A stretch of 64,000 bases of DNA from Macrostomum lignano. Taxonomy: Eukaryota. The stretch is taken from contig NIVC01001159.1 in NCBI GenBank assembly GCA_002269645.1, positions 299,414 through 363,413 of the forward strand, written 5' to 3'. The translations under genes were made by a program, and so were the position numbers. The notes beneath the pieces are model-generated. The model made no database searches. It was not told the origin of the DNA and saw only the letters and a program-made list of their open reading frames with translations. This document shows positions 6,661 to 57,500 of the stretch, piece by piece (within the stretch, counting starts at the first letter, position 1; every line of letters begins with the position of its first letter).

Positions 6661-7084
6661 AGTAATTAGGCCTTTAGGCGAATAATTAGGCAATTAGGCG
6701 GCTTCACTATTGAGTAAAATACAGCAAAAAGTTACGGTATCACAATTGGCTCAGCTCTCTAATCAGACAATGGGAAATAGGCAAACCCCGGATAAGCAAA
6801 GGCAATTAGAGCACAAATTAGTAACAGGAACTTACCGGCAGCTGCACAGAGAGAGAGAGAGAGGCGGAGTGACCGGTGGCGGCTGTAGGCTGCAGTCAGG
6901 CAGACAGTGAAGCGGCGATGCGCTGGAGCGACGAGGCGCTGATGTAGATCAGGCGATGCTGATGATGCTGGGCGGTATCAGACCGCTGGCCGATAGGCGA
7001 GCTCACTTGGGGAGCTAAGGATAACTTGGCGGTAACAGACCGCGGACCGGCAGGGATTCGCCTTATAGACGAATAGGTCAGAAC

Positions 7085-7383
7085 ACTACGTAGGACGCAG
7101 AAACTGCTGGGTTTTCAGATGTTTTGACGCAAAAAACGCAAATTATACTACTATCTGAAAATGAAGTAAGTAGTATACGAAAACGCTATCCTAAGCGTGA
7201 TATGGCAATATGTAGTCGTAATAATCCATGTGCTCATATATGTACATTAATTCCATGTACATTAATCCCTATCTATCTCAAATTGGATATGTACATTAAT
7301 TCCATGTACATTAATCCCTATCCCAAATTGTCTATCCCCAATTCTATATGTACACTCACATTAATCTACAGTGTCATCCCCAG
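7085..7383 (+). repeat. Left terminal inverted repeat (degenerate similarity extends to ~7470)
   Basis: Reverse complement of 16278-16630, roughly 90% identical by eye; internal sub-repeats TGTACATTAATTCCATGTACATTAATCC. Confidence 0.95.
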
Positions 7384-7842
7384 CGCGAACCCCCAACATT
7401 ACATGTACAATGCTACATGTACACAGAGGTGAGAATTACTAATCTCATCTACTACCAAATGAGTCAACTAACCGTGTAGCGCACATCATGTATAAGTATT
7501 TACAATGAAGATATATTTACATTTAATCAGTAGCATATTACAGGAATCGAGACATGTACACCATCACCAGCAGATAGAATATACAGAAAATTTTACATTG
7601 TTTTTCAATAATTTTCTCTTCATAAACGATTTTAAACAGGTCTGACATGCAAAATATGTACAATAGATTTTTACATTGGCAATTTCGCCACACACAATAC
7701 AAAAATGCTCTATGTACATGAATTATATATACAGCAAATAGATTCTGATAAATACAGCAGTATTACAATGCAAATTATGTATAATAAATAGATTTTAATA
7801 TTGCAAAATGTACATTGAATCGTCAGTTATAATTGGATTACA

Positions 7843-10800
7843 TTATTTATAGCCATAAGGCCTGCTGCAGGCCCCGTACACACGTTTCGTCAGGACGCGC
7901 TGAAACGTCTTGTCCATACTAACAGTGTGTATGGTACAAGACGCCTTGTCGCGCCTAAACTGAAACTGCGGCAGTTGCAGGGAGCCGCCGTGTAGTAGGG
8001 CACTGCGCAATTCATCGCTGCGCTCCCGAATCTCCGGAGTCAGGCGGATGCCCTTGCATTTCAGGACCTGACTCCGGACACCTGCCGCATCCTCGACAAT
8101 GTAAGTGTAGAGCTTGGGCCCTCCACTTACAAAGTCGGTCATCCGGCTACCTGCGGACACCTCGTCGGTCCACATTCCGAGGCTCGTGCCATGGGGCGGC
8201 TCCCATTGGCCCTCGGAATGCCGGTAAACGACCCTGGGTGTGGGGAGAGAGATAATTAGTTCCACATGCCAACTATTCAATTCTAAATAATTTATCAATG
8301 CAATACTTACGAGTCAGTGTCGCAGTAAATGGCCCGTTCGCCGAGCCCCTCCAAGGCCTCGTACAGGCGCAGCCGGGCCTGCGTGGTCGTAAAGACACCG
8401 ATTGGCACATTGGAGTACCGGAACGGCCGCTGATTAAAGTAGCGGTGCCGGTACTCTAGCAGCATAAACTCGCTGCCAATCGGTTCGCAGGCCTTGACTT
8501 TGAGGTTGGGGTAGGTCAGCCGGGCGAGCCAGTCCTCGTAGCTGGATACTATTTCTGTCGATGTCAGGTCGTCACGCTGACAAAATTTACCCCAGAGCCT
8601 GTGTGTTGTGAAAAGAAGTGCTACTGTTAGTAGAAGAAAATCGTTTTAAAAACAGAATTTATAATTACTTACGAATTCAAAAAGATTTTCGCTACAAAGC
8701 GAAGTCCTGGGTTGGGCTCGACCTTGTCCAGCGTGACGCCCTCCTTTGCAAAGAAATCGGCAATGTAGGCGGCCTTGTCTTCATCCGACATGCCGGGGGA
8801 GCCGCTCGACTCAGCCTTCAGCTTGAGGAAGGTGCTAACATAGTCACTGAACAGGCCGGTCCGCTTCTCTGTCCAGTAGGCTAGTGCGTGCACCACCTGC
8901 AGCCGGTAGCCCAACTGGAAGGCCTTCCGCAGCTCCGGCGTTGCCCAGGTACCAGTCAGTGCCCGCTGCTCGTCTGAGTGGTCACAATCGTCGCCACACT
9001 GCTGCTGCTCCATACAGGTGCGGCAAAGCCCAAAAAAGAGCTTCTTTTGCACTCTGTACGGCAGCAGCGGAATGTGCAAATTTGACGGCGGCAACACAGT
9101 CACTTTGGCAATACCAAAGTAACTAGCCAGCGCGTCAGAATCTAGCACTTGCGGCGTCGGATGTTGCACCGGGTGGCCAATCGGGTACGGGTCCTTTGAC
9201 TGCACCGTCGGGTACAGAGAGACCTGCCAGTTGAAATAAAACATTATTTTCATAAACTGTATTTTTGCAAAATATTCTACTATATCAGTAGTATCACTAC
9301 TCACCACATCCCGATATTTGAGAGTCTCAGTCTCGCTGGCCACAGCATGCGGGATAAAACACTCTACGCGGCCGCCATAGAGAGCATCTTCCATCTTGAG
9401 TGGAGCGCGCAGATGTGCAGTTGCGGCAATGAAATCGGCCTGCGACGCCAATACAGTGTCGTATTCGTGCTCCCAAATGACTCGAACACTGTAATTGTGC
9501 CGCTCCAACTCGCGAGTGAACCACTCAGTCTCGTGGCGGATATGGCTCAGAGGCTGCCGTTTGAGTGGGTGGACAGCATCCTGATCAGGCATGCACTGCT
9601 CGCAGCCATGGTAGAAACAGCCATGAAACTGCAAGACAGTGTTGCTCGCCTCATCAAAACCATCCACCTTGCGGCCAAGAATGACAGCCTCGCCGTCAGT
9701 CGAGTCGCAGGTGCGCAGCCGCCCGCCAAATTCGGTGGCATTCAAATAGGCCAGCCACTTGCGCGCCTTGAATGACTGCTGGTCGGCCTGCCGGGCAATC
9801 ACGCCGACCGAGTTGGGCTCCATAAATCGGGTGGTGAAAACGGCCATTGCCAAACTGGCAATCGTATTGGCCTGTACAAATGGTTCCAGGCCGTCGCAAA
9901 TGTCTCCAATTATTGCCCTGTACTTGATGCAGCCCTCGCGAAGCAGGACTGTGTCGCTCAAACAATAATCGAGATATTCCCGATTAAAGTTGAACAACTC
10001 GCCCTGTCGCGAGGCTAGCCAAGCACAGATTGAGTCATAGTCCTTGTTTGCTTTGCCGCCATAATATTCAATAGCCGGGTAGGAGCCCACGTAGTTCCAA
10101 TTAGCCGGCTTGTTAAACTCGTGGGAAAAGGTCCCCTTGGCCAGCTTTGTGTCAGCGAGTCCCAGAGCTTTGGGGAATTGTGCAAGCGGGATTGGTATAA
10201 AATTTAACGAATCTTTGAATACCAATTTATCCACCGTCATGCTCATTAGCCGGCTGCCCTGGAACAGTACTTGTGGCCGCTTCTTGGCCAGGCCGTTGAG
10301 TAGAGCGCCAAGCAGTAGGAACGAATCGTAGCCTGATGCATTGTGCGCTACAACAATGGCGCCGCCACGGAAAACTGTGCTCAGCCAGGCGAAAAATGCA
10401 TTCAGCGAGGCCGGGCCCACAGACACAAAATCGGCCATTTGGCAGGCGCAGTCTGAGTGGCTGACGCAATTGGAGAATTCCTCCCCCAGATCGCGGCCAG
10501 TCAGACAATTGGCGGCGCTATGCAGGCCATTGCAGAGGCGGCAAGTCTCGCGCGGAAACGCCCGGCCGGAGCAGGTCTCGCAGCACGTGACGGCAGTCAC
10601 CAGGTGCACGTGATGCTGCTTCTCATCGTCCGTGTACGTTTCCGTATCGTAGAACACGTACGGCATAGTCGAAGCTTTCACTTTGGGAGCCTTGACGAAG
10701 CACAAATGCGAGCCGGCCTCGTCGTACTGTTTACACAGTGGGCACTTGACATGCCCGCACTTGTGTTCCGGCTCCTTTTGACCGGCTTTCAGGTCTTCGC

Positions 10801-11825
10801 AATACCCGCAATTGGGGCAGACGCGGGTTGAGCTGCAGCGTGACCGCCCCGCCCGGTTCTTTCGGCGGTGGTTGTCGAAGCACTGCTGATTGTAGCACTT
10901 GAGGCCACAATCAGCACAGCGTTTGTAGTCACGCTGCAGGCTTTTGCAGTCGGTGCCGGGCACTTTGCATTGAGGGCAGGTGTTGGCACACTTGTGCCCT
11001 GCAGAGTTGCAATCATACGGCTGCTGGCAGCGGTCACAATAGCGGCGGGCTCCGAAAAATGGCGGCACCTTGCACACCGCGTTAAAGTGCTCGCAAATTA
11101 GGTGTAGATTCAGCACTTCGCGGCCGGGCAGGGCGTACACGCACGTATTGCCCTCCTCAGCACTGTATACCCGGACGCCGAAATCTCGACCGGGCGACTG
11201 GGCGTTCAGAACTGCCAGCAGTTGGGGGAGCACATCAACCCCGAAAGGCCCGGCCTGTGCAATGGTTGATAAAGACTAAAACATTTGTATATTAATAAAA
11301 TGCAAATTAAAATGTGCAAGAACATTTTTACTCACCGAATACAATTTGGCGGCAATCTGAAGCTCCCCAGTCAGCTTCTTCTGCATTGGGGAGTCGGCCT
11401 TGACGGTTTGCCACGTAGTCCTCGTGATGACCTTGGCCTGCAGGTCGGCAAAGGCCTTGGCCACCACTAGCGCCCGAATGAGGCACCGCTTGTCGCGGTT
11501 GGCGATGACAACATAATTGCGTCCCCCAATTGAATGCCGGGCCTGGATGTGACGCTCCGCCGCATCTAGGCTGCCGCAGCCGCCCCGCGGGACCCAGGCC
11601 TTGAGCAAAAACAATTTAAAGTTGTTGCCCAAGACACTGGAGTCCGACTGCAGAACCTTGTTGATATGCTTGAAAACAAGCTCTGCAGTGAAGCGGGCGG
11701 CGCGGACCGGCGGGACATTGATGGTCAACATCATATTGTCCGCCGTCAGCTTAGCTGCGACGAAATCGTCGACATTCAGGTCGGCGCAGAGGGTTGTTAT
11801 TACCCTAGCGAATGTGTCTCGAATA

Positions 11826-11894
<69 letters not shown>

Positions 11895-13286
11895 TGAACG
11901 ATACCACATATTCACAGCCTTTTGCTCTAAATTTAGGCAGGGCTTTCGCCCCGCCAAGACGCGCAATGAAGCCTGAAAAATTATAGGGTTTTGAAATTAG
12001 AATTGCGAGAGGCGGCAGGTGAATGACTCATGAAATCAACTCCTTACCATCGCCTTCGACAGTGTCGGGCTGGGGCGGGGGTTGAAATTGAGCCAAATCT
12101 GCAATAAAAATGTGCATGGTGACTAAAATTCTGACCGCTTGGAATTTTACAACTGTCAAAAATTTTTGATTGATTGCCTGCAGCAGCAGCAATTTTATCG
12201 CCCCCCACCCCAAGCAACAAAAATCGGCGAGTTGTAAAAACCCCAACTCGGCACGTTCCGACACGTAGCAACAAAAGAAATGTGGGGTTGATTGACCCCC
12301 GTTTCGAATTTTAGGCTGTCAAAAATGTTTGATTGATGACCCCTGATAACACAGATCCTGCCGCAGCAGCCATTGTAAAATTTAAGAAAACCCCCTATCA
12401 GCACGTGCCTCCATTGTGCCTCCTTGACACCTAGCAACAATACCGCGCGGCCGCTTTTGGATTTTAAAGCTGTCTGATTAATAACCCTCACTGTAGCAGC
12501 CAAGTTTTATTGCTGCCAAAACCCCTACTGTCAATTGCAGCGGTGATTACATCATCATGTCCAAAAATCGGGGTTGATTTTATCACTGCCGCCTGCCCAC
12601 CCCCCCCCGCTGAGTCACGTTCGCGCCGCAGGATTGCTGTTTTTGCTTCTCTCTAGTTCAAGGATTAGTCATATACTGCCCCTGGAATTTTATGACTATC
12701 CTCTACAGGCATTATCTGGCTATAGTGCTGCTGCTGATATTCTCTAAAACTCTGTTATTTCAATAGGCCTGAATTGAGAAATCCAGTTTCCTCTTTTTAC
12801 TTCAACATCTATGGCAGGAGGAAATTCATAAATTTTAAGCCAAAATGAATGCTAAAGATGAAAAGCAGTAGTTTCAAAGAAAGCACTATATTATTTCAAT
12901 AAGCATGAATTTAGAGTTTGCAAATCACACGAATACAAATGAATGCTGAACCAAAAGCAGTTCCTCCCTTTACTTCAATCTGCGACAGACAGTCCGAAGT
13001 CCGAATCCGAATTTCAATAAGCTGAATTTAGAGTTTGCAAAGCAACTCCGAATGCGAAGGGTGAAAAGCAGTTTTACAGTGGGCCTATTATTTCAATAAG
13101 CCTGATTTTGAGTTTGCGAAAGCCAAATGAATTCCAAAGATGAAAAATCAGTTTTACAGAGAACAGCCCTATATTTTTCAATAATCCCGAATTTAGAGTT
13201 TCGTAAAAGACAAAGACGAAAAAGAAATTTTTACACAGACTTGCAAGACTCACCTAGTTGTCTCCGCTTTGCAGCCGGAGGCTGTG

Positions 13287-13318
<32 letters not shown>

Positions 13319-13386
13319 CTCGATGGGCCGGCCTGCCCCCACAATGCCGATATTGCCGCTTCCGCAGCAGAGCGCTTCGATGCCAT
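7843..13386 (-). CDS. Protein-primed family B DNA polymerase (pPolB), 7 exons: 13386-13254, 12098-12048, 11972-11336 (one frameshift in a GCA tract), 11254-9305, 9223-8673, 8598-8311, 8233-7843; ~1,330 aa
   Basis: Spliced model restores YRDV|VSLYP (motif A), KIFLNS|LWGKF (motif B) and YCDTDS|VVY (motif C). Also ExoI FYDTET, ExoII AHNASGYD, ExoIII YCLSD, C-terminal PYGY. All junctions are GT..AG with compatible phases. Exons 1-2 rest on splice signals and phase only. Confidence 0.92.
12760..13200. repeat. Degenerate ~85-130 bp tandem repeats in pPolB intron 1
   Basis: About five copies of TTTCAATAAGC..GAATTTAGAGTTTGC. Confidence 0.6.
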
Positions 13387-13527: not shown

Positions 13528-13535
13528 TTTATATA
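13528..13535 (-). promoter_or_regulatory. Candidate TATA box of the pPolB gene
   Basis: TATATAAA on the minus strand ~140 bp upstream of the proposed ATG (13386). Confidence 0.5.
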
Positions 13536-16277
13536 CCCCGCAAGAGGGAGGGTGGGGTAGGGGCACGAGAATTGTGCGTGATTTTCTTTCCCGGGTCTAT
13601 ATTCTCCAGATTAGTGTACGATTGAACACTCCATTCCGCATTTGGTATAGAAAAGTTGGGGTCAAAATTACCCCGCCAATTCTTTTCTCATGCGGTATTT
13701 TATTGGATCTGAGCGGAGCCATCCAACCGGCACTCTCGCAGGAGTGAAATGGCGACTTCGTCAGAGTACAGTCTCTCAAAGAAGAAGACCGCTTCCTCTT
13801 GCAACATATCTTTTCGACTCGAATCGGATAGAAAACGGTGTTTATCCAGAAAACAATTGGCAGAAGCTGACCAATAATAGCTAAATACAGATGAAAAATA
13901 TGAAAGAAAACTTCTGTGGTTTTTAAGGCCCGCCTGTCTCTGCGAGAAAATGGATGTCAAAAATCGCTGTATCAATTTAATGACCTGGGGGAAATGGGGC
14001 TTGTGTGCAAAGCATCCGATTGACAGAGGCTTGGGGAAGAGTTAATGGTCGATGAAAAGCTCTTGCCATCATCTAAAATATCCATCAAAGAGTAATAGGT
14101 GACAGCCCCTGTCTCGAGCCAAAAAATCAGAGAGACAGAGTTTTCTACTTCTGTTTACGTAATGTTTAGGGATGGACCTGGGGTTATAGTGACAGAGAGT
14201 CAGTTATGGCATTTACGCGGTAGTAAAGAATTGCCTTGGTGAGGCTGGGGTAGGTGTTGTTCTCTCCATATTGGCGAACATTAATAGTCCTGGGTTGAAT
14301 TTTTGAATATAGCTAGAATGTATAGCGGAGAATCGTTGAATTGAAGGGTGATTCAACATGCAAAGTATGCAACAAAACCGATTCAGTGCATCTAAAAGAG
14401 GCTGTTGGGAGCTTCAGAACTGAGAATAACGTTTAAAATAGCATCAATGACATGATTTAGTAATCGAAATCAATTGAATGCTGAAAACTTTAAGTTTAAT
14501 AGCAGACTGTGTTTTTAGCCCCAATTTTACAGTGTCTATACAATATTTCCCCAGCTTCTTGGGCAATATACATGCCTATTTGAATGACAAAACAGCGTTT
14601 TTGATGGTTTATTAGCTAAAATTACGATTTCTATTGATAAAATGACAGATTTCGATCCATAAAGTAAGCATTTTAACGTTTAAAATCGAAAAATGAGGAA
14701 AACTCGTGTTTTTCATGAAAAAAATTGCATTACTAGTAATTTAGCCTCCATTAACTATTTCTTGGGCTGGGCTGGCTGCGGACTTCCATGTGGGATTTAT
14801 TCCTGCTTCGAAGCCGTCTCAAGTAAAGTTGAAACGGCATTTGGGTAAATTAACTGTTGAAGTTTCCAGTGATGAAATTACTGATTTTTATCCACAAAGT
14901 CTAACTTTTAACGTTAAAATTAAAAAACTGTAGAAAACTCGCCTTATATGAAATGTGCTTTTTACGAGCTAGTAATTTAGCTTTTAATAAACTTGGACGG
15001 AATTCCAACTTGGAGAGGTCAGTGGGTGATTCATTCCTGCTTCGAGAGATCGAACTTTCATAGAGTCTGAAAGCTTGAAGTGAGAGGGCAGGGGAAGCGA
15101 TAGAATTGACATAGCCGCACGTTTATGGGCGGGTGGACTTCACTACTTCTAGTATACCGCATTGGCCATAGTGCCAAAGTATTTCTGTGACAAAACACAT
15201 CTATAGAATTCAGTCTCGGAATTGTATGCAGAGGAGACACTGATTCATAGGCTGTGTACATTGACAGATGCAGCTGGGGTTTGTCAATGCAGGTGGAGGT
15301 TGACTCGGATTTGCCCAGATTCGTGGGGTTGATATGTGCATTAAAAGTTGGTTTCTTGCTAACTGGGGCGACATGGATGACGTAATTGGATAAGAGGGGT
15401 TTTGCTGAATGAGGTTTAATTTAAGGTCCGTGCTGTCAAAAGATCTGTTTGAACACTGAAATGGAGAGAGGGGTTGGAATTCCTTGGCATTTAGAAGGGT
15501 GACAGAGAGAACAGGGACGAGTGGTTCAATTCGATTTGCTATAGGGGTCTGCTGACCATTAGAGGGGTGGCTGTTTTCAAACAGTCTTGGGGTTGAATTT
15601 TGAATATGGCCGGAGATAAAGGGTGATTCAACATGCAACATAATTAATTCCATAGTGTACACCAGCGTCAGTGGCACATTTTGCGGATTACAGCGCGACA
15701 AGGGGTCTTGTATCATCTGCACTATCAATAGATATATAAAACATTGCTTTCACAGTCTTGATTTAGAGGCCGACTAAATAAATATATACTTATCAAAGCC
15801 CGGCCGGCTTTTTGTGTAAATATATATACGTCTTTTGACAACTTATTTGACTCGGGTAGAGGCATTGGGAATGACGTAATTGTCTCGGAGTGGTGACGAG
15901 GGCTGAATTCTAGAGGTATGAAGTATAAAAGGAGTGGAAATAACAGTGTGGACCGCGATTTTTGGCTGACTCATGCCTCCTCTGCCAATTTTGGGGGATG
16001 GGCGGCGGTTTCTGCGTACACTGTTTGCTTTCTGTGGATCAGCAGATGCAGATCAGGAAGAGTTAATTCTTGGATGTGCGGCCGCTTTGCAAATTTTGGG
16101 TATAATATCAATATGGGTGGGTGGGCGCTTCTGCATGCTGTTTCAACTATTGAAAACTCATTTGGTAATGGTAGATGAGATTGTACAGCGCGCGCGTACA
16201 CCAATTCTCACCTCTGCGCACAACTGTACACACGTAGTAGGGTTTCGAGTTGTAATTTTGGTGCGCGCGTGGGCCGT

Positions 16278-16630
16278 CTGGGGATGACACTGTAGATTAA
16301 TGTAAGTGTACATATAGAATTGGGGATAGACATGGACATTTGAGATATGGATTAATGTACATGGAATTAATGTACATATCCAATTTGAGATATTTAGGGA
16401 TTAATGTACATGGAATTAATGTACATATCCATTTTGAGATAGATAGGGATTATTGAACATGGAATTAATGTACATATATGAGCACATGGATTATTACGAC
16501 TACATATTGCTACATCACGCTTAGGATAGCGTTTTTGTATACTACTTACTTCATTTTTCAGATAGTAGTATAATTTGCGTTTTTTGCGTCAAAATTCTGA
16601 AAACCCAGCAGAATCTGCGTCCTACGTAGT
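16278..16630 (-). repeat. Right terminal inverted repeat
   Basis: Inverted copy of 7085-7383 with an extra internal sub-repeat. Confidence 0.95.
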
Positions 16631-19298
16631 CAGAACTCAGTCTGACAACAAGTCCCGGAAAGGGGAAAACGTAGAACGTGTGAGGATTCTCATGCCGAAA
16701 TCGCTTCCTTTTATAGACCTCACAGCCGTCTCCTCAAGGTCGTTACCATGGCTCCCTCTCTCTGATTGGCTGCCGGCAAAATGACGTCAGAATGAGTCAT
16801 GATGAGAAGCATGAGACCGGCATAGCAACATGAGAAATCGGGAAATTGCGCAATCCGGAGGTGGGGTTGGGGGGATAATTGGCGCAGCGGGTGGTCGCGA
16901 AAGTATTGCGCAAGCAAACATTGAGAACAATAGGGCTGGGGTCGAGAACAAAGGAATTGGAAAACGGGGATAATTGGGGAGAACTGAGAACAATGGAAAA
17001 GTAAACATTGGGGAAAAGGTGATAATTAGGTGCGAAAACGAGAACAAAAGAAAGAGAAAATCGGAGAAAATGTGATAATTGGTGGGGGTCGAGAGAACAA
17101 AAGAATCAAAAACGAGAACAATAGAAGCGGAGGTGGGGTGGGTGTCGCATGAGAAATTTGGGAAGGAGAACAATAGCGTGAGAAAAGGTTGCGCAAGAGA
17201 GGGGGATGAGTCATCGATGAGTCATCGAGGGGGAGAAGGGGTCACACAACTTGCGTCACCGTTTGGGAGTTTGAGAGGGGATGGGGAGACGGTGAGCACA
17301 CAAAATACTGTAAGTAGACACAGAGAAAGAGAGGACAGCGCAGGAAAAGAGTGCAGAGGGAGACAAAAAGAGGGGGGATAGGGAAAGTACAGGAAGAATA
17401 GGGCGGATAACAGAAGAGATAGGGTAGAGGGGGAGGTACAGAGAGGGGTAGGGGGCTCCGGAAAGGCAGGTGTGGCGGCAGGGGAGACGGGACCAAGGCA
17501 GCAGGAGGGGTGCAGTAGAGCGGGAGTCTCCAGGCCCGGTCGGAGACCTGGCCGAGTCTCGACAGCTCTGCGCAGAGGGTGCACGGGATAGGAGGCACTT
17601 TCGAAAAAGTTCCCATGCCCTATCCCGCGACCAGAGCGTGGTTACATCAGAAGAATAACACCACTGCGACTGCATTCATCGCCACGTGGCTATGTAGGAA
17701 TTCTACAAAGGATCGTTGCACTGCAGTTGAGACAATTGTTGCAACTATCTACATGTGCACGGAAATTATCATTGCTTTTTTATTGAAAATTAGTTTTCGC
17801 GTACCGACATTTGGCTACAAATTGAGTTTAGCTGGCTCTTCTCATCGGTCAGCTCTGATGCAAGATTATTAGAGCCACACGTACATGATCATATGCCAAA
17901 ACTCTCTCCTTAAAGTACATGATTTATATATATGTATCTCGATATTCGCAAGTGCTGGCCTGCAATATTCTGACGTCAGCCGACGTACCCGACCAACGTA
18001 ACCGAGGTCCATGGACGTCGCTGGAAAATGGGTATTACGAGAGCGCATACTCTGACGGATGACGACGTTTATACGTCAGCTCAAAGTGGCGTCGGTGTGA
18101 TAGACGTCCGATGACGTCACTGAAATTTGGATTGCTGCACGGACTATGTCAAATGCTTCAATCCAATTGGCTTCCTGGTACTGTCTTGATTTCTCAGTTT
18201 GTATAGGAATGTTGCAGAAATGTGTGTATATTTTCGTCACGTTTTTCTAAGCTTGCATACCAGCATTGGTTTTACACATGAACTGCATGCATGTACATCG
18301 TAGATTTGAATGATTTGCCTCTGTGTGCTATTTTGTTAGTTAATATATAGTTTAACTGTCGCAAGATTACAGTTTCTTTAGTTTTTTTCTGGGGTATACA
18401 GAGTGTTCCGAACTGCATGCATATGTGGGCCTATTTCTGGATTTTTAAGGCTTCTATATTTTACTCGGGAGACAACATACATTATACCAATTGTTTAGGA
18501 TCTAATAACAAAGATAGAGAGTAGGCCTATCATCGCATACTCGTACGCTCGTCGTCCCAAAGATGGCTGTATCGCAGTGCATGGCTTAAGTGGAACCGGA
18601 TGCGAACAGCTGTACCACATGTACATGTATGCGCAGGTCTGGGGGGCCGGGGGGTTAGGGAGGGACATCATCTAGCACGCCTAAAGACAGTCTAGCCCTA
18701 TATAGCTGTGCCTCTTGCCACTGCGCCACACCTTGCTACTACAGTGTCTGCTATGCCATCCTGCCGCATCTTTATTTTGCTTCACCACCATGCATCTCTA
18801 TGCTGCACTATGCCTTGCTACCACACAATTTGTACCACTCTAAGCAACGCTGCTGCGCCTGCAAGATGCTGGAAGCCTTTTGAAAAGCAATCAATTATTA
18901 TTGATTCGCCGGATACGTACTGTTGCCTTATACTTTTCTCATTATCTCTTCAATTTCAATCCAGTTCTTCAAGGTCTCAAGGATCACTGGACTTCAGCTA
19001 TAAAATCCCAGGCTAATATGTGCAGCTTAAAGTATCGAGTCGAGATAGATATTAGTCTTTTACATCTAAATCGGTTAAATACTCTCTTTTCCTCTGACCG
19101 TTATCTGACCTTTGACGCCATCACATCCATCTTAAAAATTAGCTAAACGTAAAATCGCAAAGATAGGAGTGCTTTATCATAATTTGAGTTCTATATATAA
19201 TTTTCCTTACTTCTTCTGAAGTTCAAAATGAATACATCGAAACGATACTGCTACAGTCCACAGGCCAGTCAATTCAGCATGGGATTCGAAAGTAGTAC

Positions 19299-19742
<444 letters not shown>

Positions 19743-20272
19743 AATATAAAAATAAAAAATATAACCCTAATTCGAGCATTTAAGTCCCTATCGTTTTTTA
19801 TCTAATCGATCTCATTGATAGATAGACACAGACGCAACATTTTTATTATATCGATATATTCTGTACAAGTCTGTGTGGTTATAATGCGTTAAAATTGGCA
19901 CAAACCTAAAGTTTTATTATAATTCTTAACAATTAAAAAAGTCGTTATAACCAACGGTTTTAATTTAATTAATATAAATCGCTTAATTTATTTAATTAAA
20001 CAACATCATTATACATCCCATAAAGCGTCTTCATATGTGAATGTGACTATATATTATATTAAGTGAATTAGTCATAGGCCTACTGCATATAACCATATGA
20101 TATGGTATACATCGTTCCTATGCCCCTAATTTAATTTCCTGTCCACCTACAGGCTACACCTAGTAGGTCCATGACCGGTTTTTCAGTTCCAGTTCCCGAT
20201 AAGATAAAAATAACAAAAAGATCGATTTAGCAGAAAACACTTGAATGTAAAACGATTTTTTAGTCGAAAGTC

Positions 20273-20790
20273 AAATTTACCATCTGAAATCTGTGTATTA
20301 TGTAAAAAATCTGCTTCACAGACCTTACTGTTGCTTCAGTGCAGGTCTCCAATCTTGCATAGCGTGGTGTTGAAACGTCAGTAACTGCAGAATTTCGCAT
20401 ACAGGCCAAATCATTCTACCCCTAGAACTACGAAATACGAAACAGCGACTGTTAACCAATTTTATTTTTGCAATTTACCATCTGAAATCTGTGTATATGT
20501 AAAAAATCAGCTTCACAGACCTTACTGTTGCTTCAGTGCAGGTCTCCAATCTTGCATAGCGTGATGTTGAAACGTCAGAAACTGTACGATGTCGCATACA
20601 GGCCAAATCATTCTACCCCTAGAACTACGAAATACGAAACAGCGACTGTTAACCAATTTTATTTTTGCAATTTACCATCTGAAATCTGTGTATATGTAAA
20701 AAATCAGCTTCACAGACCTTACTGTTGCTTCAGTGCAGGTCTCCAATCTTGCATAGCGTGATGTTGAAACGTCAGAAACTGTACGATTTC
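20273..20790. repeat. ~197-bp tandem repeat, ~2.6 copies
   Basis: AATTTACCATCTGAAATCTGTG recurs at ~20274, ~20472 and ~20669. Confidence 0.9.
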
Positions 20791-20849
20791 GTAGCTACAA
20801 GGGTTTGTAGCGTTGAATTTGTAAAATAACCGGCTTATACTCGTAGGTA

Positions 20850-22200
20850 ATTATAGAACAACAGCAACAAAAAATACGCAGTCGCCCCAGTAGTCAGTGG
20901 AGGGAGCGTCAGATGACATGTCGAAGCGCCAGCAGGCGAATAATCAATTGTCCGGCCCATTGATCGACAGTGTCGGGCGCCCCAACGTTGCTCAGGATGC
21001 AGTCCACGTATCTCCGTGTCCTCGGTCGCTTGAGCCCGCCTGAACTGTTCCAGCAAAGTGAGCGGCAGGATGTCCTGGACAGGCTAGGGCAATAGCCCGG
21101 ATCACGTAACGCCTGTCAGTTGGAGTCGCCGTCTCGCTGCAGAATGGTGCATCCTTGGACGGGACGCTTTTGTCAGCCTGAACGCATGGAGCAGCCCCGC
21201 GGGCCGAGTGATCCAATTGTTTAGCTGTTGCTCCAGCGTGGCCGTTAACATCGGGACGCTAGAATTCGCGCGACTGCCCGAATTTCGCGCGATCTGGCAT
21301 TCGAGCGACTGCATTTGCGCGACTGGAAATCGAACGACCTGGAATTGAAGCGCGCGACTTCTTTCTAGCGACTGGATTTCACACGACTTGATTTAAATCC
21401 AGTCAATCAAAATCCGGTTGCGCGAAATTCAGTCGCGCGAAATCCAGTCGCACGAAATTCTACGTCGCGCGAAATCTAGTCGCTTGAAGTAAGTCGCGAG
21501 AAATGATGCAGTCGAATTCAATTTCAAGTCGCCTAAAATCATCCGATTCGCGCAAAATCCTGGTGCGCAGAAGACAATTAGCGCAAAATCCAGTAGCGCG
21601 AATTCTGGCGTCCCTTGAACATCCACGTCTCTGCAGCGTTGTCGAGCAACACAGCCGAGCCCTCTGACGATCGGGCAGCGCTTTGGACTGAAGGATGACG
21701 CGAATCGACCGGTAGGTCGTCCAGGCAAGTCCTCTCGATCTAGATCTGCGTCGTCGAATTTCGTCCTCAACGTTGGGCATCAGACCTTCGAGGTGAACCG
21801 CTGACAGCGCGCGAGGTTAGTCGTCTGCCCGTCTGCGCCGCGGCATTACGCTGTGGTGACGGCAGACGGCTTGTCTGACCTGTCTGAAACTTCGTTTAGG
21901 AGTGCTACACAGAGCGACACATTCTAGCGCCGTTCCTCTTCGTGCTGCTCCTGGCATGGATTGTGCAGCTTCGGAACGGACCCCCTTCAGCAGGCGACGG
22001 CTTCCTGCTGCGCAGACACATCAGTCGCCGCCACAACGAGAAGCGCCTGAGCGGTTCTGGGCTACGCCGACGACCTCACACTCCTGTCATCAACTGTTGA
22101 TGGCGCACAGCGCTAGATTAAGGTTGGTCGAGGTGGCATCAAAGCGTCGGCCTATTTGTCGACACGCTGAAAGACCGAGGCGCTGGCATGACCATCTCAG
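20850..22200 (-). pseudogene. Decayed RTE-clade LINE 3' fragment; RT piece at 21905-22200 is inverted (+)
   Basis: Minus strand: GLAWTTYRSIRVILQSKALPDRQRARL, TLEQQL, RRRLQL, RTRRYVDC. Plus strand: ILAPFLFVLLL...LGYADDLTLLS. Contains frameshifts and stops. Confidence 0.75.
21253..21614. mobile_element. Palindromic MITE built of ~15-bp units (CCAGTCGCGCGAAAT), inserted in the RTE fragment
   Basis: TIR GGGACGCYAGAATTCGCGC; units invert around central GATTTAAATC; imperfect 8-9 bp duplication (TTAACATC/TGAACATC). Confidence 0.75.
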
Positions 22201-25200
22201 CGAGCCGATATCCCAGCGGAGCTGACATATCACCATACAGCGATATGATGGCGTCAACTAGCTGCTGGGGACTCGACAGGTTTGTAGGACAAAAGGAAGT
22301 GGTACTCTTAGCACTGAATCAAATGCCATAATAATTAAAAACCCTAAAAATGCTGAGCAAAGGCCAAGACCTTTCACAGAGTTGTAACTCCTTTAATTTC
22401 CTATTTTTCCGAGGTTCATGCTGGCGCGTACAGACTCAATTCATATACAATTATTTCCAGCTTGTACATTGTTTCATTTTACGAAATTGTACCTTTAAAA
22501 GCATAATCAAATGCAAGGGCCTGACATCGGGACAACTGTGCATATGTCCCCCCCCCTGGCCTGAGTGAAAGCTATGAAAAAGCGAACAAAATGAGTGTCT
22601 GTGTGGCAATAAAATTGAGTGTTAAAAACAGCGATATAAAAATAATGTAGGAATTTCGTCACTAAGAATTCTTGACTTTGTCCCCCACCATAAAATCCAT
22701 AGCGACGCGCTCACGCCTCTGATCACATGCAAGTTAAGAATTACATCTAATTGTGCAACATATTTACATATATGTTTAATATTTGATCAATTAGATTTGT
22801 AATGTCTGTAGAGAAATTACAATTAATCGATTCAAGGTGCACTATTGGATTAATTTACGTATTGACTGTATTAAGTTATTGATAGAATTTTTACGACAAT
22901 TACATGTATTCTTCTGGAGAAGTAACATATCATAATCTTATAAATTACATGTATCCTATCTTATATTTTTATCTCAATATCTTTATTTCACATGTAATAT
23001 TCAAAACCCATGTTTTATAAGCACTTTTAACTTTTAGGAATTTTTGGCGTCAATTGAAACCATTATTTGAATTGCTATTAGTTAATTTATTAATTTACCA
23101 CAATATTTTGAGTTCAAAGTAATTGTAGTTAACTTAATTGTAGTTAACTACTGTCTTTATCAAGTGTAAAAAGAACGAAAACTTTTTTTAAATGTCTACT
23201 ACTTTCTTTGTTTATTCATTCTACATATTAATTTTTTTATCATATTAAGAAGAGTTCTTACTTCATATTGTTATCGTATCGTCACATTATCACATACAAC
23301 GATAATGATAGATCAAGCTGGCACTCTGAGATCGAACCGTGGTTTTTTGAATATTCGCCTCTATATTAGTACTTGTTTCTACCATAAAATATAAATAAAA
23401 TAAGAAAACGTTTAAATAACATTGTATTTTATATTTTTTAAAACATTAATGTTAACTTCATTCTTAAAGCAGTAAACATTTGTTTTAATATGCGTTGTAA
23501 CATATTCCGTTACGGCGGGATTTTAAAGTACGATTTGGGAACTGGAACTGAAAAACCGGTCATGTAGGTCCTAGGCTAGGCTCTACCAATCGACATATTC
23601 TATCTGCCTGTCTAATACAATTCCTAGTCCTAGCCGCAAACAAAGCGTAGGCCCTTATGATTGCATTGCCTATAAGCCTGTCACTTTTGATGGGCATTTA
23701 AGCTATATATAGCCTAGGGCCCTAGGCCTATCGCCTATAGGGCCTACCTGCCTGCTGCCTATGCAATGCCACCTATCTACTAAAAATGGTTGGTAGGCCT
23801 ATTCAGAGTCAAACAGAATGTCAATCAATGTCAATGTAGGCCTAGCCTAATCAAATTGGCACTTAACACACTTTTTCTAGCTAGATGCCATTTAATTTAA
23901 TTTTAATTAAAATTAATGACACGAAAATGGTGACTTCAGCAACAAGCAATGTTAAATTCGGCGAAAAGTTTCTCTTTCACTTTCACAAATCACTTTCTAT
24001 GGCTATTTATTTAGTCTTTTTATTATATTCTTAGTTTCTTACTAACATAACCAATGCGTCTATATCCTACCATAACCGCCTACAGCCTAGGCCCCAAATA
24101 CTTTCCCTTTTTGTTAAATTTAACAAACACATGTGCTCTGACAAGCAATCCTGTGACATGCTGATTGTTTGTTGGGATAAGAAGCTTTGATAAATATCCG
24201 CACTCTTAGGACCTACTTTGTACCTACCAACCTAAAGAGACCAACCAAGTGTGTGAGCGAGCCCCATTACCAAGGCGGCTTCGTCACAGTACAATCTGCA
24301 ACTCCAATCCTATGAGAACATTTAGGCCTACATGTACTGTGGTTTCTGCATTTATTGAATCAAAATTTCAATTTTATCGTATAGCCACATCTTAAATACC
24401 ATGCATACAAATACAAATGTTTCATGTAATTTGTTGTAAAATGTAGTACGTGGCTATACCACAAAGCTAAAATTCACAAAGTTAAAATACTCTACATTAA
24501 GACATGACTGTGTGGAGATAGGGCCTAGACACACATAAAAAAAGTGCAGTCTCAGTTTTGAAAGGAAAAGTTAGGCTAGCATAAGATTCATACCAAAAAG
24601 AACAAACAGTATTGCATTATGTTAAATTGCAATGTAATTTAACTTAAAAGCATTAAAGGGCATTTAGCCATGGAACATTTAGCCAATTGCAAGCTTCCAG
24701 CAGTGCCTCCTCAGATCGCAGTCCTTTAGAAAATTCTTGCCAAAGCTTTTGAAAAATGGCTTCTCGCCTATGTACGCAAGTGTGCTAGCGACGATGCTGG
24801 TCACCCTGCCTGACAAGGCAGTGGTAAGGCAGGCATCCAGAATGGCCTGATGAGCTTCATCATGCAGGAGTTAGGTTAGCAAGTAAATCTGCAAGTCATT
24901 CCTCTGCACTCTGCTATTAAGCTGGCAATGCCAGCTTTCAAGGTTGTTATTTGTTCTAATCGGCTACCTGTAGACTGAGAGGCACTCCAGTCCCTATAGC
25001 AAGCTGTTAATCTGTTTGACCTAGTGACTCAGACAATAAGCATTGTTGACAAAATTTACTTGTTGCCAAATTTAATATCGCTTGTTGCTGAAGTCACAAT
25101 TTTTTATGTCGCCGAAATCAACTATCGCCAAAAAGCCTAGCACCCAAGCATTCTCTAGTTAGTTTAGACCTAGTCTCTAATTAGATTTAATAATTTATTT

Positions 25201-52260: not shown

Positions 52261-53348
52261 GCGCATTTGAATGTTTCAGCTTGAAGTTAGAATGATAACA
52301 CAGGCTTTTTCAGCTCTCCCATCAAGTCAGTGCAGCTCTTGTTGGATGGGCCTTCTCAGAACAGGGCAAGTCGAGCTTGACACTTTCTGGCTGGCAGGGT
52401 GTGCCGAAGTCCGAGGCTGCTGGATTCACTTCTGACTGGCCGTCATCAGCAAGTTGAAGACATGCAATGGCCTCTAGCTGCTCACCAACCGTAGTGCCCT
52501 GGGCAAGCACGCGAAGGCGTATTCAGCATGCCAGTGAAGTATGAGACAGACTAGGCCCATGGGCTAAGGTCTGCGATGCTTCACGCCTGCCCCTATCTTC
52601 AGCAGGTCAAGGCTGGTGGGAGGTCTGCACCCTCTATTTGCCTCTGGCAGCCGCAGACCCCCCCCCCACGCTGTCTCGCAAGTCGACCCAGGGTACTCGT
52701 CCCCGCGTGTGTTCAAGGCAGTCCCTAGGGCTGCTGGACAGACTGGGCTCCGGCGCTGGCGACCCTATCCAGTGGCTTCGGCCGAATTTGGGTATGCGGG
52801 TCTGGCTCGCCAACCTGCAGGCCGTGGTACTGCTCAACGTACTCTCTAATGCCTAAGGTGTTGACCGTGCCGATGGGCTGGAAGGCCGGGGAGTAGTCCG
52901 GTCGCAAGCGGTCCCCCTCCTGGTGTCGGGCCAGCCTTGAGGGTGCTATTGGCCTACTGCCCGGTCAGGTGGAGCGGCCGGGTGGGTACCGCGCCCCTTT
53001 GAGGGTAGCCCACCAACATTTTATCATGGCCTTCGAGCCGACTATGGATAACCAAGCTTTTTCTAGGTACGGGGACCCTTCTAAACCCCAACCTCAGTCC
53101 GAAGGACCGGCCGGCCCTGCTGGCAGATCCCAACCGACTGATTCAACTGTGGCAAAGGAAAAACTCAAAATACCCAAAGACCTGCCAGCTCCGCTGGTGG
53201 ATCTAAGGGAACCGCGAGCTCTGAGCCTAAAGGACCGGCCAAATCTGGCAGATCCGATGAAGCTCAGCGGGCTCGGCTTGAGCGCAAACGCGCTAAACAA
53301 CGCGCCAAAAGGCAGGCCAAGAAGGGAGCTGCGGGGGCCAAAGCGGCG

Positions 53349-54506
53349 GTGTCCACCATGGATGCTGAAGCGACTGGCGTCCCAAGGCAACCAGACGGGC
53401 CGGTCGGTGGAAGCTCCGGTAGTTCAGCGGGGGCGCTCCCTGGAGATGCTGCTGCGGCTGCTGAGGCCGAAACCACGGCGCAACAAATGGCCACTGCCAA
53501 CAAGGAGGTTCCTTCGGGAGCTACCTTTGCGGCGAAGGCCAAGGCCAAAATCCCGGGAGTGATCATCCAAGGTCGCGACCAGGACTGGACCACTGATCAG
53601 CTTCAAAAAGTGTGGAGTGCTGTTGACTCCTATCTGATTGAGCTGACTGTCGAGGAGGGAATCTCCATCGGCATTGAGCGGATGGTGCTGCGAAGCACAT
53701 TCGTTCTTATTGCTCCTAGCAGCGAGGAGGACGCTCGGCAGCTGCTCCAGCGGCTACCGACGGTCTCCTTGGATGCTGACCTTGGCGGAGCTCTTTTTCT
53801 TCGCGAGGGCCAGCGTCCAAAGACGATACCCTATGTGGTTTTCGTCCCTGCTAAGAGCACCGCAGCTGGACCAGACGTTATTCGCCGGGTCCTACTGCGT
53901 CTGAACCCCGACCTCCCTGCTAGTGGACTGGTGTATCACCGCAAAGTCCGCAGGGGGGAGACGGGCAACTCAATTGTCCTCGGCCTTTCCAGCACTTGGG
54001 CGAGTCGGTACCCTAATGGATCCTCTTTCCAGCTGGGTGCCCTCAAGCTCAAGATGCGCCGAGGAAAGTCTGCCAAAGGGAAGGCTACTGCCAACCCCGG
54101 CATCTCCGGCAAGAGCGGGGCGCAGTCTAAGGCCCAAGGAAAGGCGCAAGCCGATCCCAAAGCCAAAGCTGCATCTCGCCCCTCTGCTAGCAGCAGTTCG
54201 GCGACCGCGGTAACGGCTCCGGCCAAGCCCCGGGAACCAAACCTGCCAGTCGGAGAAGGAGTTGAGGACGAGGCCGGGTCTTCGGAATCCGAGCTCTCCT
54301 CGGCCACCCTGGTGGGGTCTGAAGGTAAAGATGCAGGTGAGGAAGCTTCCTCCATCCTGTCATCGGAGCCTGAGGACTCTGCTGGGGGGCCGGTGGGGGT
54401 GAGGAGGCCATGGACGTCGACCAACTCCCATCTCCCAGTCAAGCCCCAGCGGCCTGGGACGAGGACGATCTGTTGTCCAAGTCTCCTTGATGGCCCTGGG
54501 CTCTAG
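53349..54506 (+). CDS. LINE ORF1 (LOA-type; frame is open upstream to ~53142)
   Basis: Position directly before ORF2; basic N-terminal stretch; central domain resembling LOA ORF1; no CCHC knuckle seen. Confidence 0.7.
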   Translation: MSTMDAEATGVPRQPDGPVGGSSGSSAGALPGDAAAAAEAETTAQQMATANKEVPSGATFAAKAKAKIPGVIIQGRDQDWTTDQLQKVWSAVDSYLIELTVEEGISIGIERMVLRSTFVLIAPSSEEDARQLLQRLPTVSLDADLGGALFLREGQRPKTIPYVVFVPAKSTAAGPDVIRRVLLRLNPDLPASGLVYHRKVRRGETGNSIVLGLSSTWASRYPNGSSFQLGALKLKMRRGKSAKGKATANPGISGKSGAQSKAQGKAQADPKAKAASRPSASSSSATAVTAPAKPREPNLPVGEGVEDEAGSSESELSSATLVGSEGKDAGEEASSILSSEPEDSAGGPVGVRRPWTSTNSHLPVKPQRPGTRTICCPSLLDGPGL

Positions 54507-54529
54507 CCAGACATTGCATTTAATACAGT

Positions 54530-57500
54530 ATGACTAAGCTCCACGCTGCCAAAGGAGCGACATTCTGTCTGCAAATAAATTTACAGCATTGCGTATCTGC
54601 GTCAGTAAATCTGATGAAGATTGCTGAGCTGTACAGGCCAGGCCTCATCCTGATCCAGGAACCCTGGATGCGCAACGGTAAGTTGCCCAACATTCCCTCT
54701 GGCTACTCTGATTTTTATGTGTGTGGCCCGGGGAACAGCCGCCCTAGAGCGGCTATCCTCGCTGCTAGCCATCTCCAGGCTTGGCTGAGGACTGATCTCT
54801 CTGATGGAGACCTTTGCGTCATCCAATCTAATCATTTCTCTCCGCGTACGTGTCTTGTTGCCTCGGTTTATATCCCAGGCGACAGAGACCCTGCTCCTGA
54901 GAGTTTACTGCGCCTCGCGCAGTACTGCGAGTCCCAGAACGCTGAGCTGTGCTTAGGGGGCGACCTCAACGCGCACCACAAGCACTGGGGCAGCAAAGAT
55001 ACCAACACTAGAGGAGAGGAGCTTCTGGACCTCATCTCTAACACAAACCTCATGCTCTGCAACCGCGGCAGCACTCCTACCTTTAATAATGGCAGATGGA
55101 CCGAGGTCCTCGACGCCACACTCGTTACCCCAAGACTCTTTGACAGAGTTGAGGAGTGGAGAGTCTGGTCTGAGGAGCCCTCCCTGTCCGACCACTGCTT
55201 TATCGCCTTTAACATCGCGGACACTAAAACCCAGTCTCCGATCACTTGGAGACGCAATATCCGCAACACTGATTGGGCGGCCTACAAGGCTGCCCTTGAT
55301 CTGCACCTGCAGGAACTCACGGACTTACGTCCGATTGAGACCTGCGAGGATGTGGATCATATGGCTGAGACGCTGACAGGTTGCATTATTGAAGCCTACG
55401 AAGCGGCTTGTCCTGCTCGCGCCTACAAAGGCAAGACCTCGGCGCCGTGGTGGAACCCGGAGCTGGGGAAACTCAGGCGGAAGGCCAAAAGCCTTCATCG
55501 CCGTGCCATGAAGACCGGAAACCCGGAGGACATGGAGCTTTTCCGGCAAGCCTCCCGCAATTTCAAATCTGAAGTGCGCAAGGCCAAGGAATGTAAGTGG
55601 CGCCAATTCTGCAATGAATTGGATCAAGACAGACCTACTTCTAGGCTTGTCAAGGCCCTTACAATGGACAAAATGTCCAAATTAGCCATGATCAAAAAAG
55701 ATGATGGCTCTCTTACTAAAGACCCTGAAGAAGTGCTTCAGCATATGCTTAGCACATTCTTCCCGAGGGTACCTACTGCTAGACCGGAGCCCAACCATTC
55801 GATGGATGGAGCCACCCTAGCGGCGGGCATTGTCACTGAAGACCTAATCGCTCGTGCGGTCAGAACCTTCAAACCCTTCAAATCTCCTGGACCTGATGGT
55901 ATCTACCCTGTTCTCCTTCGTGAAGCAGCCAAGATACCCTCGTTCCTGAGACTCACCCGCAATCTTATGCGGGCCTCTATCCAGCTGGGATACGTTCCCA
56001 AATGCTGGACTGAAGCTCGGGTAGTCTTTATTCCCAAACCTGGGAAGGGTGACTACCAAAGCGTCAAGGCCTTCCGGCCTATTAGCTTAACGTCAGCAAT
56101 GCTTAAGCTCACTGAGAGGCTTATTCTCTGGCGGCTGCTGTCCTGCGAGCTGACAGCGATGCCCCTCAGCAATAATCAGCACGCCTTCCGTACCGGGAGG
56201 TCGACTGACAGCGCCTTGCATGCGATTGTCGAGAAGATTGAAAGGGCGGTACTGGGTGACGGTTACGCTCTGGCTCTCTTTCTTGACATTGTTGGCGCCT
56301 TCGACAACGTTATCTTTGAAGCGTTTCAGAGGGCCCTTCAAAATCGCAAAGCTCATGCTACCCTCATACGGTGGATCATGTACATGATCTCCAACCGTAC
56401 GGTCACTGCCCAACTTCTTGGGCAAACTGCCTCCACCAGAGTCTGTAAGGGTGGACCCCAAGGCGGAGTCCTCACCCCGACGCTCTGGAACCTGGTCATG
56501 GACGCTCTTTTGAGTGACTCCCGACCCGACCCCGTCTTCAAAGTCGGGTATGTTGATGACGTCACGGCCATTGTGGCAGGACCGTCTCCCAGCACGCTCA
56601 GGGATCTGATGCAGAGCTTTATCCGCAAAGCAGAATCCTGGGCCAATGACAATGGTCTGGAACTCTCTGAGCCCAAAACCGTTGCCATTATGTTTACCAG
56701 CAGACTACGCTGGAACATACGTCCTCTGCAGCTCTACGGCAGAGATATTGTCTTCGCGCACCAGACCAGATGTCTCGGGGTCATACTTGACCACCGGCTC
56801 AACTGGTCCTCCCACGTGAAAGCAAAAGCCAAGCGTGCCTCAGCCATCCTGGCCCAGCTCCGACGAGCACTTGGCACTTCTTGGGGCCTATCCCCAAAGC
56901 GGCTTTGGTGGATCTATACTTCCGTAGTTAGACCTGCCATTACGTACGCCTCTGTTGTCTGGGTTAGCGCTACCCAGGTCAAAAGCCATGCAGACCTGCT
57001 CAACACGATCCAAGGCAGAGCGTGTAGGCTCATCTGCAACGCCACCAGGTCCACGCCCTTTGCTGGCATGGGGGCCTTCCTTAATCTTCCGCCTCTTGAC
57101 CTCTTCATCAGGGGTGAGGCGGCTAGAACGACGCGGCGTCTAATTGATGCCGGCGTCAAATTCATTTACATGAGAGCACCTGCTAAGCGGAACCTTGTCC
57201 CGCATAGCGATCTGTGCCTCAACTTTCTCAACGAGTGTCAGGCCAATTGCGTCTTCACCGATGGCATTGCCTCAACGCTCAACCTGAGACAGCGCTACTC
57301 CGTAGCTATCGACTCGCGCGATAACATCAATGACCAATGGAACCCTGGTGAGCTTCATTGCTACACCGACGGTTCTAAGCAGTCAGCCAACACCGGCTTT
57401 GGTGTTGGAATCTTTCTGAACGGGAGGGTCATCGCTACCCACGCTCAATACACTGGGGTCAACTCCAGTGTTTTCCAAAATGAAGTTCTGGCCATCAGCT

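Follow-up and report, generated by a model that had tools for sequence, protein, structure and literature searches.

Predicted spliceosomal introns at the catalytic motifs of a Polinton-type DNA polymerase gene in Macrostomum lignano

Introduction

The closest described relatives of the element analysed here are Polintons of marine nematodes and molluscs with a Vsr-type family-B DNA polymerase of the protein-primed kind (pPolB), designated pPolB2 (10.1101/2023.08.22.554363). The element itself is a Polinton derivative of 9,546 bp, with long inverted repeats at its termini and a target duplication of 6 bp on either side. It lies within 64,000 nucleotides of the flatworm Macrostomum lignano (GenBank assembly GCA_002269645.1, contig NIVC01001159.1, positions 299,414 to 363,413, forward strand), hereafter the window, in whose own numbering all coordinates are given. 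As far as the accessible text of that source goes, Vsr-type Polintons and the present element are alike in Exo I-III, motifs A-C and a Vsr-like insert of the polymerase, and have long terminal inverted repeats and a 6-bp duplication in common; this likeness is one of features. The differences are the size of 9.5 kb, the integrase, ATPase, protease and capsid genes that were not detected (the capsid queries being unconfirmed), and six predicted introns.

Inteins of family-B polymerases (I-III; pol-a, -b and -c) interrupt active-site motifs, as do three of the introns described below, and intein positions I and II are found within motifs A and B. The three positions are fixed, one of them being YGD^TDS (the caret marks the point of interruption), according to the accessible part of PMC549080, and the motif C intron of the present gene is situated 8 nt downstream of that point. 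Unlike inteins, the three introns are predicted to be spliceosomal; they are 74-81 nt long and non-coding, carry no homing endonuclease and interrupt a different phosphodiester bond. Clustering at catalytic motifs has so far been known for selfish homing elements and not for ordinary introns.

The Drosophila P element has an intron-bearing transposase gene with tissue-specific retention, which was demonstrated there, whereas retention in the present element would be hypothetical. Ginger1 is likewise a DNA-level element with GT-AG introns in its enzyme gene, at positions conserved across families, but that gene encodes a transposase, not a polymerase, and the accessible text does not state how the introns are placed relative to catalytic motifs (PMC2836005). 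Furthermore, introners, which are introns of the spliceosomal type, invade Polinton-like proviruses of dinoflagellates (10.1101/2025.03.18.643946). Unlike these, the introns considered here are mutually dissimilar, lack terminal repeats and appear to be old and common to subfamilies; motif targeting is not described for the dinoflagellate introners in the part of that source available to us. Intact vertebrate Mavericks are characterised in the accessible text of PMC8097293 by intronless open reading frames (ORFs) and AG/AGT repeat termini, and the present element departs from this with its ACTACG termini and six introns.

Spliced pPolB genes are not mentioned in the accessible parts of PMC8502044, PMC11296320, PMC10675990, PMC5784728 and PMC6431247. 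Likewise, no report of the element or of motif-located introns was found in a literature search whose scope excluded Repbase, the 2006 Polinton paper, most subscription journals and bioRxiv supplements.

Results

Predicted introns of the polymerase gene

The only recognisable gene of the element encodes a protein-primed family-B polymerase, identified by a PF03175 match (expectation value, E, 8.6e-27) and by its nearest non-Macrostomum homologues, which are Polinton-type pPolBs. An earlier note on this DNA had placed six introns in the gene, three of them interrupting motifs A, B and C, and our analysis reproduced their coordinates and lengths (Table 1). All six begin with GT and end with AG, every acceptor being CAG; the donors are GTGAGT or GTAAGT in five introns and GTAAGG in one. 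A GTRAG-like donor, a YAG acceptor and an AT/pyrimidine-rich interior, the features of U2-type introns, were found in 6/6, and a branch-point-like CTAAY precedes the acceptor by 26-32 nt in three. The GC content is 0.26-0.41 in introns versus 0.56-0.64 in exons, and the low-GC 40-nt windows within the gene coincide with four of the five short introns and with one exonic window.

Exons were searched singly against a profile of 32 full-length uninterrupted homologues, with which they are colinear. The four 3' exons, all open in the frame that the junctions require, map to profile positions 248-831, 832-1014, 1016-1110 and 1112-1246. They adjoin on the profile (831^832, 1014^1016, 1110^1112), with only the two split Ser codons missing, and the three junctions fall inside the motifs, that of motif A being one codon past the catalytic Asp. 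The motif A intron is in frame and stop-free, as had also been claimed: a stop-to-stop frame, 8669-11275, runs through it, and the peptide inserted upon retention would be of 27 aa. Three short-intron lengths are divisible by 3, those of the motif B and C introns (74 and 77) being not among them. By these features the interruptions are spliceosomal introns in a Polinton-type polymerase, very probably removed constitutively by the host spliceosome.

Self-splicing group I or II introns and inteins were ruled out by the lengths of 74-81 nt, two of them not multiples of 3, and by Rfam, which even at E values up to 1 matched none of the introns and found CAG tracts only. An introner origin was also rejected, with edge repeats of 0-2 nt, terminal inverted matches of at most 5 nt and one of ten intron pairs above shuffles. 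It should be added that intron 3 and the motif A intron are both 81 nt long and both start with GTGAGT. Their similarity beats 497 of 500 shuffles (uncorrected; marginal after 10 comparisons), a hint that one was perhaps copied from the other.

Intron placement in relation to conservation

Judged by conservation (7-residue window), the motif A, B and C junctions belong to the top 2.3%, 1.4% and 0.3%, respectively, of the 1250 profile positions; over three window sizes their ranks span 0.2% to 4.7%. The probability of at least three of six introns at sites so conserved is 3.5e-4, and that of one intron in each named motif about 2e-5, both tests having been framed post hoc, after seeing the data, with a generous null. 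A comparison with random expectation had been proposed in the earlier note, and the three motif matches do exceed it. The remaining three introns are located in the variable N-terminal part. Intron placement at motifs A, B and C is non-random.

Junctions apparently common to Macrostomum subfamilies

Gene models of M. lignano are the best 44 of 120 homologues listed, and fall into a close (n=9) and a divergent (n=35) subfamily. YRDV is present in all 35 models of the latter; 18 go on to VSLYP and 17 jump elsewhere at this point, and divergence exactly after YRDV indicates a splice donor there. All 30 divergent-subfamily models with the start of motif B go on to LWGK, and two of 21 deviate directly past DTDS, where P0002 of the close subfamily ends. 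Moreover, P0242, a 197-residue ORF with 59-63% identity, begins at the motif A acceptor and stops at the motif B donor. Around motif B, 30 residues are identical in two of the three subfamilies. The closest relative outside the Macrostomum group, P0247, is uninterrupted at all three motifs; it may be a transcript.

The subfamilies apparently sharing junctions are 59-70% identical and have intact catalytic residues. At the protein level, the introns thus appear to predate the split of the three subfamilies and to have been copied along with the element, as expected of replication as DNA, and a long nuclear residence, postulated previously, is likely given the apparently common junctions. Three of the Macrostomum models (P0012, P0020 and P0030) fuse the polymerase with metalloprotease/disintegrin or zinc-finger domains; these fusions are probably prediction artefacts from insertion beside host genes.

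Breaks at motif B in other polymerases

Exon 5 was searched against 1.84 billion representatives, which gave 4039 matches, the best 150 of them listed; removal of seven Macrostomum-like rows left 143 representatives. Among these, 83 reach the C-terminal end, three stop before motif B and 57 end early after. Fourteen of the 57 early ends fall within six motif B positions out of 196 (1.74 expected, P 1.4e-9), as do ten of the 20 ends found when the protein ends at most one residue from the match end. Identical intron sites, for which the earlier note had suggested a survey of pPolBs, are not common: 7/143 break at the same motif B site as the present gene, and 119/143 read through.

In six proteins Arg replaces the invariant Ser and is followed by the protein end (four cases), Tyr or Cys, as read-through of an AG^GT donor would give. 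As for the other breaks, one protein ends at Ser like P0242, and others end or diverge at Trp, Gly or the next residue. In a FastTree phylogeny of 152 rows, from which P0244 and P0245 were omitted as internally duplicated models, the motif B breaks occur in several separate supported clades among uninterrupted relatives. If the breaks are read as donors, their occurrence at several adjacent positions in separate clades fits repeated gain near one spot better than one inherited intron, and motif B looks to be a recurrent intron site in unrelated polymerases. A count of nine changes on the tree was left unused as inflated, spliced Macrostomum models having been coded as without intron, and a count of one change was uninformative, as it compared just two labelled groups. 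Trimming at a Pfam domain end was rejected as the cause of the motif B ends: the match of exon 5 (residues 2-142) to PF03175 extends over positions 239-366 only, out of 468.

Two further searches contributed less. The P0046 C-terminal-region search of short proteins returned 120 mostly uninterrupted sequences, with motif patterns A, B and C in 115, 109 and 100, and was not used for the hot spot owing to its bias. The P0127 B-to-C linker search found eight proteins only and was uninformative for a motif C survey. It should also be mentioned that in several unrelated polymerases (P0303, P0270, P0288, P0249 and P0361) homology starts abruptly in or just before motif A, in some after an acceptor-like leader, which is suggestive of motif A introns in other polymerases.

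Other intron-bearing Polinton polymerases

A contig scan gave 57 pattern matches, reduced to 21 loci (L001-L021). Four related loci among them carry GT-AG introns in pPolB, verified in DNA (L018:2591-5163; L019:1764-2082; L015:2731-4106; L020:844-1209). The L018 gene has five introns of 61-78 nt; in the three contigs related to it (~60-74% identical), the site at profile position 988 is found in three, 934 in two and 622 in one. The earlier statement that Polinton genes are intron-poor therefore stands for intact vertebrate elements, as described in the accessible text of PMC8097293, and fails for these four loci. ATPase-like and adenain-like genes are Polinton neighbours of the L018 polymerase. 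The four loci are filed under a bacterial genome bin, yet look eukaryotic. More generally, L001-L021 are Polinton-type polymerases on contigs in bacterial genome bins, three of them with rve integrases (Pfam), and are likely eukaryotic or viral contamination of these bins.

The set P0047-P0120 without P0048 is probably one more intron-bearing lineage, seemingly broken in the Vsr motif. In 72 of its 73 proteins Lys stands directly past the FWHG motif of the Vsr-like domain, and the majority terminate shortly afterwards, the outcome expected of a G^GTAAG donor; three of the 73 read on and stop just before motif A.

Structure of the element and its surroundings

The outer 234 nt of both inverted repeats are 96% identical (224/233 aligned bases), and the termini read ACTACG...CGTAGT. 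Features of an autonomous Polinton/Maverick that were found are the pPolB, the long terminal inverted repeats and the 6-bp duplication. A query set of 272 ORFs, taken from 21 loci that bear Polintons and containing ATPases, a protease and three integrases confirmed by Pfam, gave no integrase, ATPase or protease match at E <0.2 in the element outside pPolB; the presence of capsid proteins in this query set was not confirmed, which limits the capsid negative. Pfam and PHROGs yielded nothing credible across the internal 2.5 kb, and six longer internal ORFs were empty in Pfam, though a highly diverged or finely split gene would escape. The element is a Polinton derivative without detectable integrase and not an autonomous Polinton. 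Its integration probably depended on a Polinton integrase that either came from another source or has since been lost.

The catalytic residues of motifs A-C are present in the polymerase together with Exo I-III and the Vsr-like insert. With alignment A1, a profile of relatives, matches were obtained to the Vsr of E. coli (1vsr; E 8e-4) and to PDB chain 1xhx, the DNA polymerase of phi29 (E 4e-8). An AlphaFold model of P0127 reached 76.9 in the predicted local distance difference test (pLDDT) and contributed no further finding. The putative exon 1 is linked to the gene by splice signals and phase only, and none of the tested homologues confirms it. CAG tracts occur at 13520-13413 (5' leader), 13326-13290 (exon 1) and 11893-11826 (exon 3). 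The last of these must have expanded in the lineage of this copy, because paralogues in the database are without it.

Table 1. Coordinates of the element and its polymerase gene within the window
Feature	Position	Strand	Remarks
Left target-site duplication	7079..7084	n/a	CAGAAC; matches right copy
Left terminal inverted repeat	7085..7464		contains internal short repeats
Candidate polyadenylation signal	7794..7799	-	ATTAAA; consensus match only; AT-rich 3' region
pPolB exon 7	7843..8233	-	beyond motif C; KxY and KG motifs; to stop codon
Motif C intron	8234..8310	-	77 nt; phase 2, splits Ser of DTDS; GTAAGT...CAG
pPolB exon 6	8311..8598	-	motif B end to DTD of motif C
Motif B intron	8599..8672	-	74 nt; phase 2, Ser after invariant Asn (KxxxNS); GTAAGT...CAG
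pPolB exon 5	8673..9223	-	motif A second half to KxxxN of motif B; PF03175
Motif A intron	9224..9304	-	81 nt; phase 0; in frame, stop-free; GTGAGT...CAG
pPolB exon 4	9305..11254	-	CxxC-rich region through catalytic Asp of motif A
Exon 4 landmarks	10654, 10348, 9967		Exo I, Exo II and Exo III, respectively
Vsr-like nuclease insert in exon 4	9670 and 9628	-	positions of motifs
Intron 3	11255..11335	-	81 nt; phase 0; contains stop; poorly conserved region, site rank ~0.73
pPolB exon 3	11336..11972	-	N-terminal region; frame change in CAG tract
Intron 2	11973..12047	-	75 nt; phase 1; models P0001, P0002 join same flanks
pPolB exon 2	12048..12098	-	51 nt
Intron 1	12099..13253	-	1155 nt; phase 1; internally repetitive; predicted from splice signals and phase
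Putative exon 1	13254..13386	-	ATG 13386; low complexity, Gln/Ala-rich; predicted
TATA-like box	13529..13535	-	~150 nt upstream of putative start; consensus match only
Internal 2.5 kb	13600..16155		holds no recognisable Polinton gene
Right terminal inverted repeat	16156..16630
Right target-site duplication	16631..16636		CAGAAC

Within the element, a TATA-like box is followed by a 104-aa ORF on the + strand reaching the right inverted repeat (15925-16287), for which no Pfam or PHROGs family was found; a zf-RVT cluster lead (Atlas, score 0.92) was discarded as shuffled proteins score as high. A short protein-like stretch at 13810-13700 (- strand), without a family found, ends a 113-aa frame upstream of the polymerase promoter. 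Elsewhere in the window, a long interspersed nuclear element (LINE) at 53142-58270 (+ strand) comprises a 454-aa ORF and then a 1248-aa ORF whose domains are endonuclease, reverse transcriptase and RNase H. At 20159-23575 and 23924-25103, inverted repeats of 39-46 nt occur in two pairs with spacings of 3.3 kb and 1.1 kb; these are possibly small DNA transposons. Many minisatellite arrays are present across the window.

Discussion

We propose that the motif introns owe their place in conserved motifs, whether gained or preserved there, to the logic that applies to inteins, an explanation that we consider the best on the whole and to which we assign a probability of about 0.45. In the case of inteins and group I introns, conserved sites are favoured on two counts, namely targeted invasion and the requirement that a deletion be exact (PMC2814812). 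In the Macrostomum element, conserved polymerase motifs would be cut targets of sequence-specific nucleases of competing elements, or of the polymerase's own nuclease insert. Break repair at a motif may occasionally leave a spliceable insert, which would also abolish the cut site and, being lost only by exact deletion, would persist. Targeted gain and slowed loss would both be compatible with the observed placement. That unrelated introns occupy several adjacent positions is easier to reconcile with repair close to a cut than with the homing of a single intron. As the element is copied as DNA, introns would be inherited with each new copy. The accessible parts of two sources describe homing-type nucleases as common in Polinton-like elements (PMC12220804) and as inserted in some pPolBs (10.1101/2023.08.22.554363).

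A number of observations weigh against this explanation. Splicing is predicted from DNA and protein comparison. The reading frame of the gene shifts within the exon-3 CAG tract (~11893-11826), so that, in the assembly, this copy is disrupted at a point upstream of the catalytic domains; this may be a real mutation or a read error. In cellular genes, spliceosomal introns were not found to favour conserved sites (PMC2814812). The motif B hot spot rests on protein ends only, and in the tree 69 of 149 branch supports are under 80 and deep branches are weak. At motif C, three proteins diverge past DT with Gly, which is not a significant excess (3/57, P 0.11). Finally, the five intron sites of L015, L018, L019 and L020 are all outside the motifs (rank 0.29-0.90), and these genes read through motifs A, B and C. 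Intron-bearing pPolBs occur beyond this flatworm, and their introns need not be placed in the motifs.

The last point also serves an account in which the introns arose neutrally in splice-friendly contexts (G^G, AG^). The invariant Ser-x-Trp-Gly codons would provide these in all lineages, so that gains accumulate at motif B, and the triple hit would be a lucky one noticed afterwards. The density of G^G contexts in seven uninterrupted genes is 3.6-fold higher within motif B, which speaks against the nuclease-based explanation in that context may account for part of the ~8-fold excess of motif B ends without nucleases, and where Arg follows Asn, as in six proteins, the exon would have to end in AG^. 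Moreover, introns of the L018 group are at unconstrained sites, and three of the six introns of the present gene are in variable regions. On the other hand, the excess itself is about 8-fold, the classical proto-splice sites AG^G and MAG^R are absent from motif B in the same seven genes (MAG^ ratio 0.75), the motif B and C introns of our gene sit in a TC^G context, which is no classical proto-splice site, and the triple hit has the low probability given above. We regard a neutral origin as rather unlikely. That these are not introns at all, but decayed insertions or assembly errors of a dead copy mimicking GT-AG, is hardly credible: this copy is indeed broken at the CAG tract, and database gene models are spliced inconsistently and may be ab initio predictions, but 6/6 have GT-AG ends, near-consensus donors, AT-rich interiors and exact colinearity with uninterrupted homologues, and the same junctions recur in subfamilies 59-70% identical with intact catalytic residues.

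Two functional accounts were considered as well. The earlier note had suggested that splicing gates the replicase; tissue-specific retention of the motif A intron would give a dead full-length polymerase, with the other two introns as fail-safes, and would confine replication to germline or stem cells, in the manner of the P element. Retention of this in-frame, stop-free intron would indeed split the catalytic motif. However, a stop-free state arises in 6.7% of shuffles, 0/396 proteins contain an 8-mer of the retained peptide, all three motif donors are perfect consensus (GTGAGT or GTAAGT), and a frame-shifting intron anywhere would gate equally, so that motif placement would be unneeded. Furthermore, P0242 starts at the acceptor, which suggests that the open state of the motif A intron may not have been kept in that subfamily. 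The suggestion is thus unsupported, and we hold such a gate to be very unlikely. Somewhat less so, though still improbable, is that introns mask a long transcript as a host gene, as a silencing escape or export aid, their position being secondary. HUSH represses long transgenes that lack introns in human cells, and introns counteract this repression (PMC8770142); introns are seen in several independent pPolB lineages, and some Ginger1 DNA transposase genes have 1-4 introns (PMC2836005, accessible text); yet masking leaves the motif placement unexplained, the HUSH case is human and not flatworm, and a 1950-nt exon remains.

The intein-like explanation has a bolder form, in which Polintons are in conflict through nucleases and the introns would serve as immunity alleles. 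Endonucleases carried by the elements, of which the polymerase's own Vsr-like domain may be one, would cut the uninterrupted catalytic motifs of rivals. Those repair scars that can by chance be spliced would turn into introns, protect their carrier and spread, and many lineages would independently come to have introns in the same few codons. We consider this form unlikely. If true, homing-type selection would be one route to the gain of spliceosomal introns, and Polintons split by introns would make up a large class that surveys relying on ORFs overlook.

Irrespective of mechanism, the element contradicts the intronless description of intact vertebrate Mavericks and, with the motif B pile-up, challenges the no-preference rule for spliceosomal introns. 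Since pPolBs are ancestrally uninterrupted and the elements are replicated as DNA, each of their introns represents a gain with an assignable place on a tree, and the long-standing question of what determines where introns are gained becomes testable in many independent lineages. Surveys based on long ORFs would class as decayed elements that are spliced and possibly active. A layout with the polymerase as its only gene and no integrase, together with at least 44 related models in one flatworm, deserves description in its own right.

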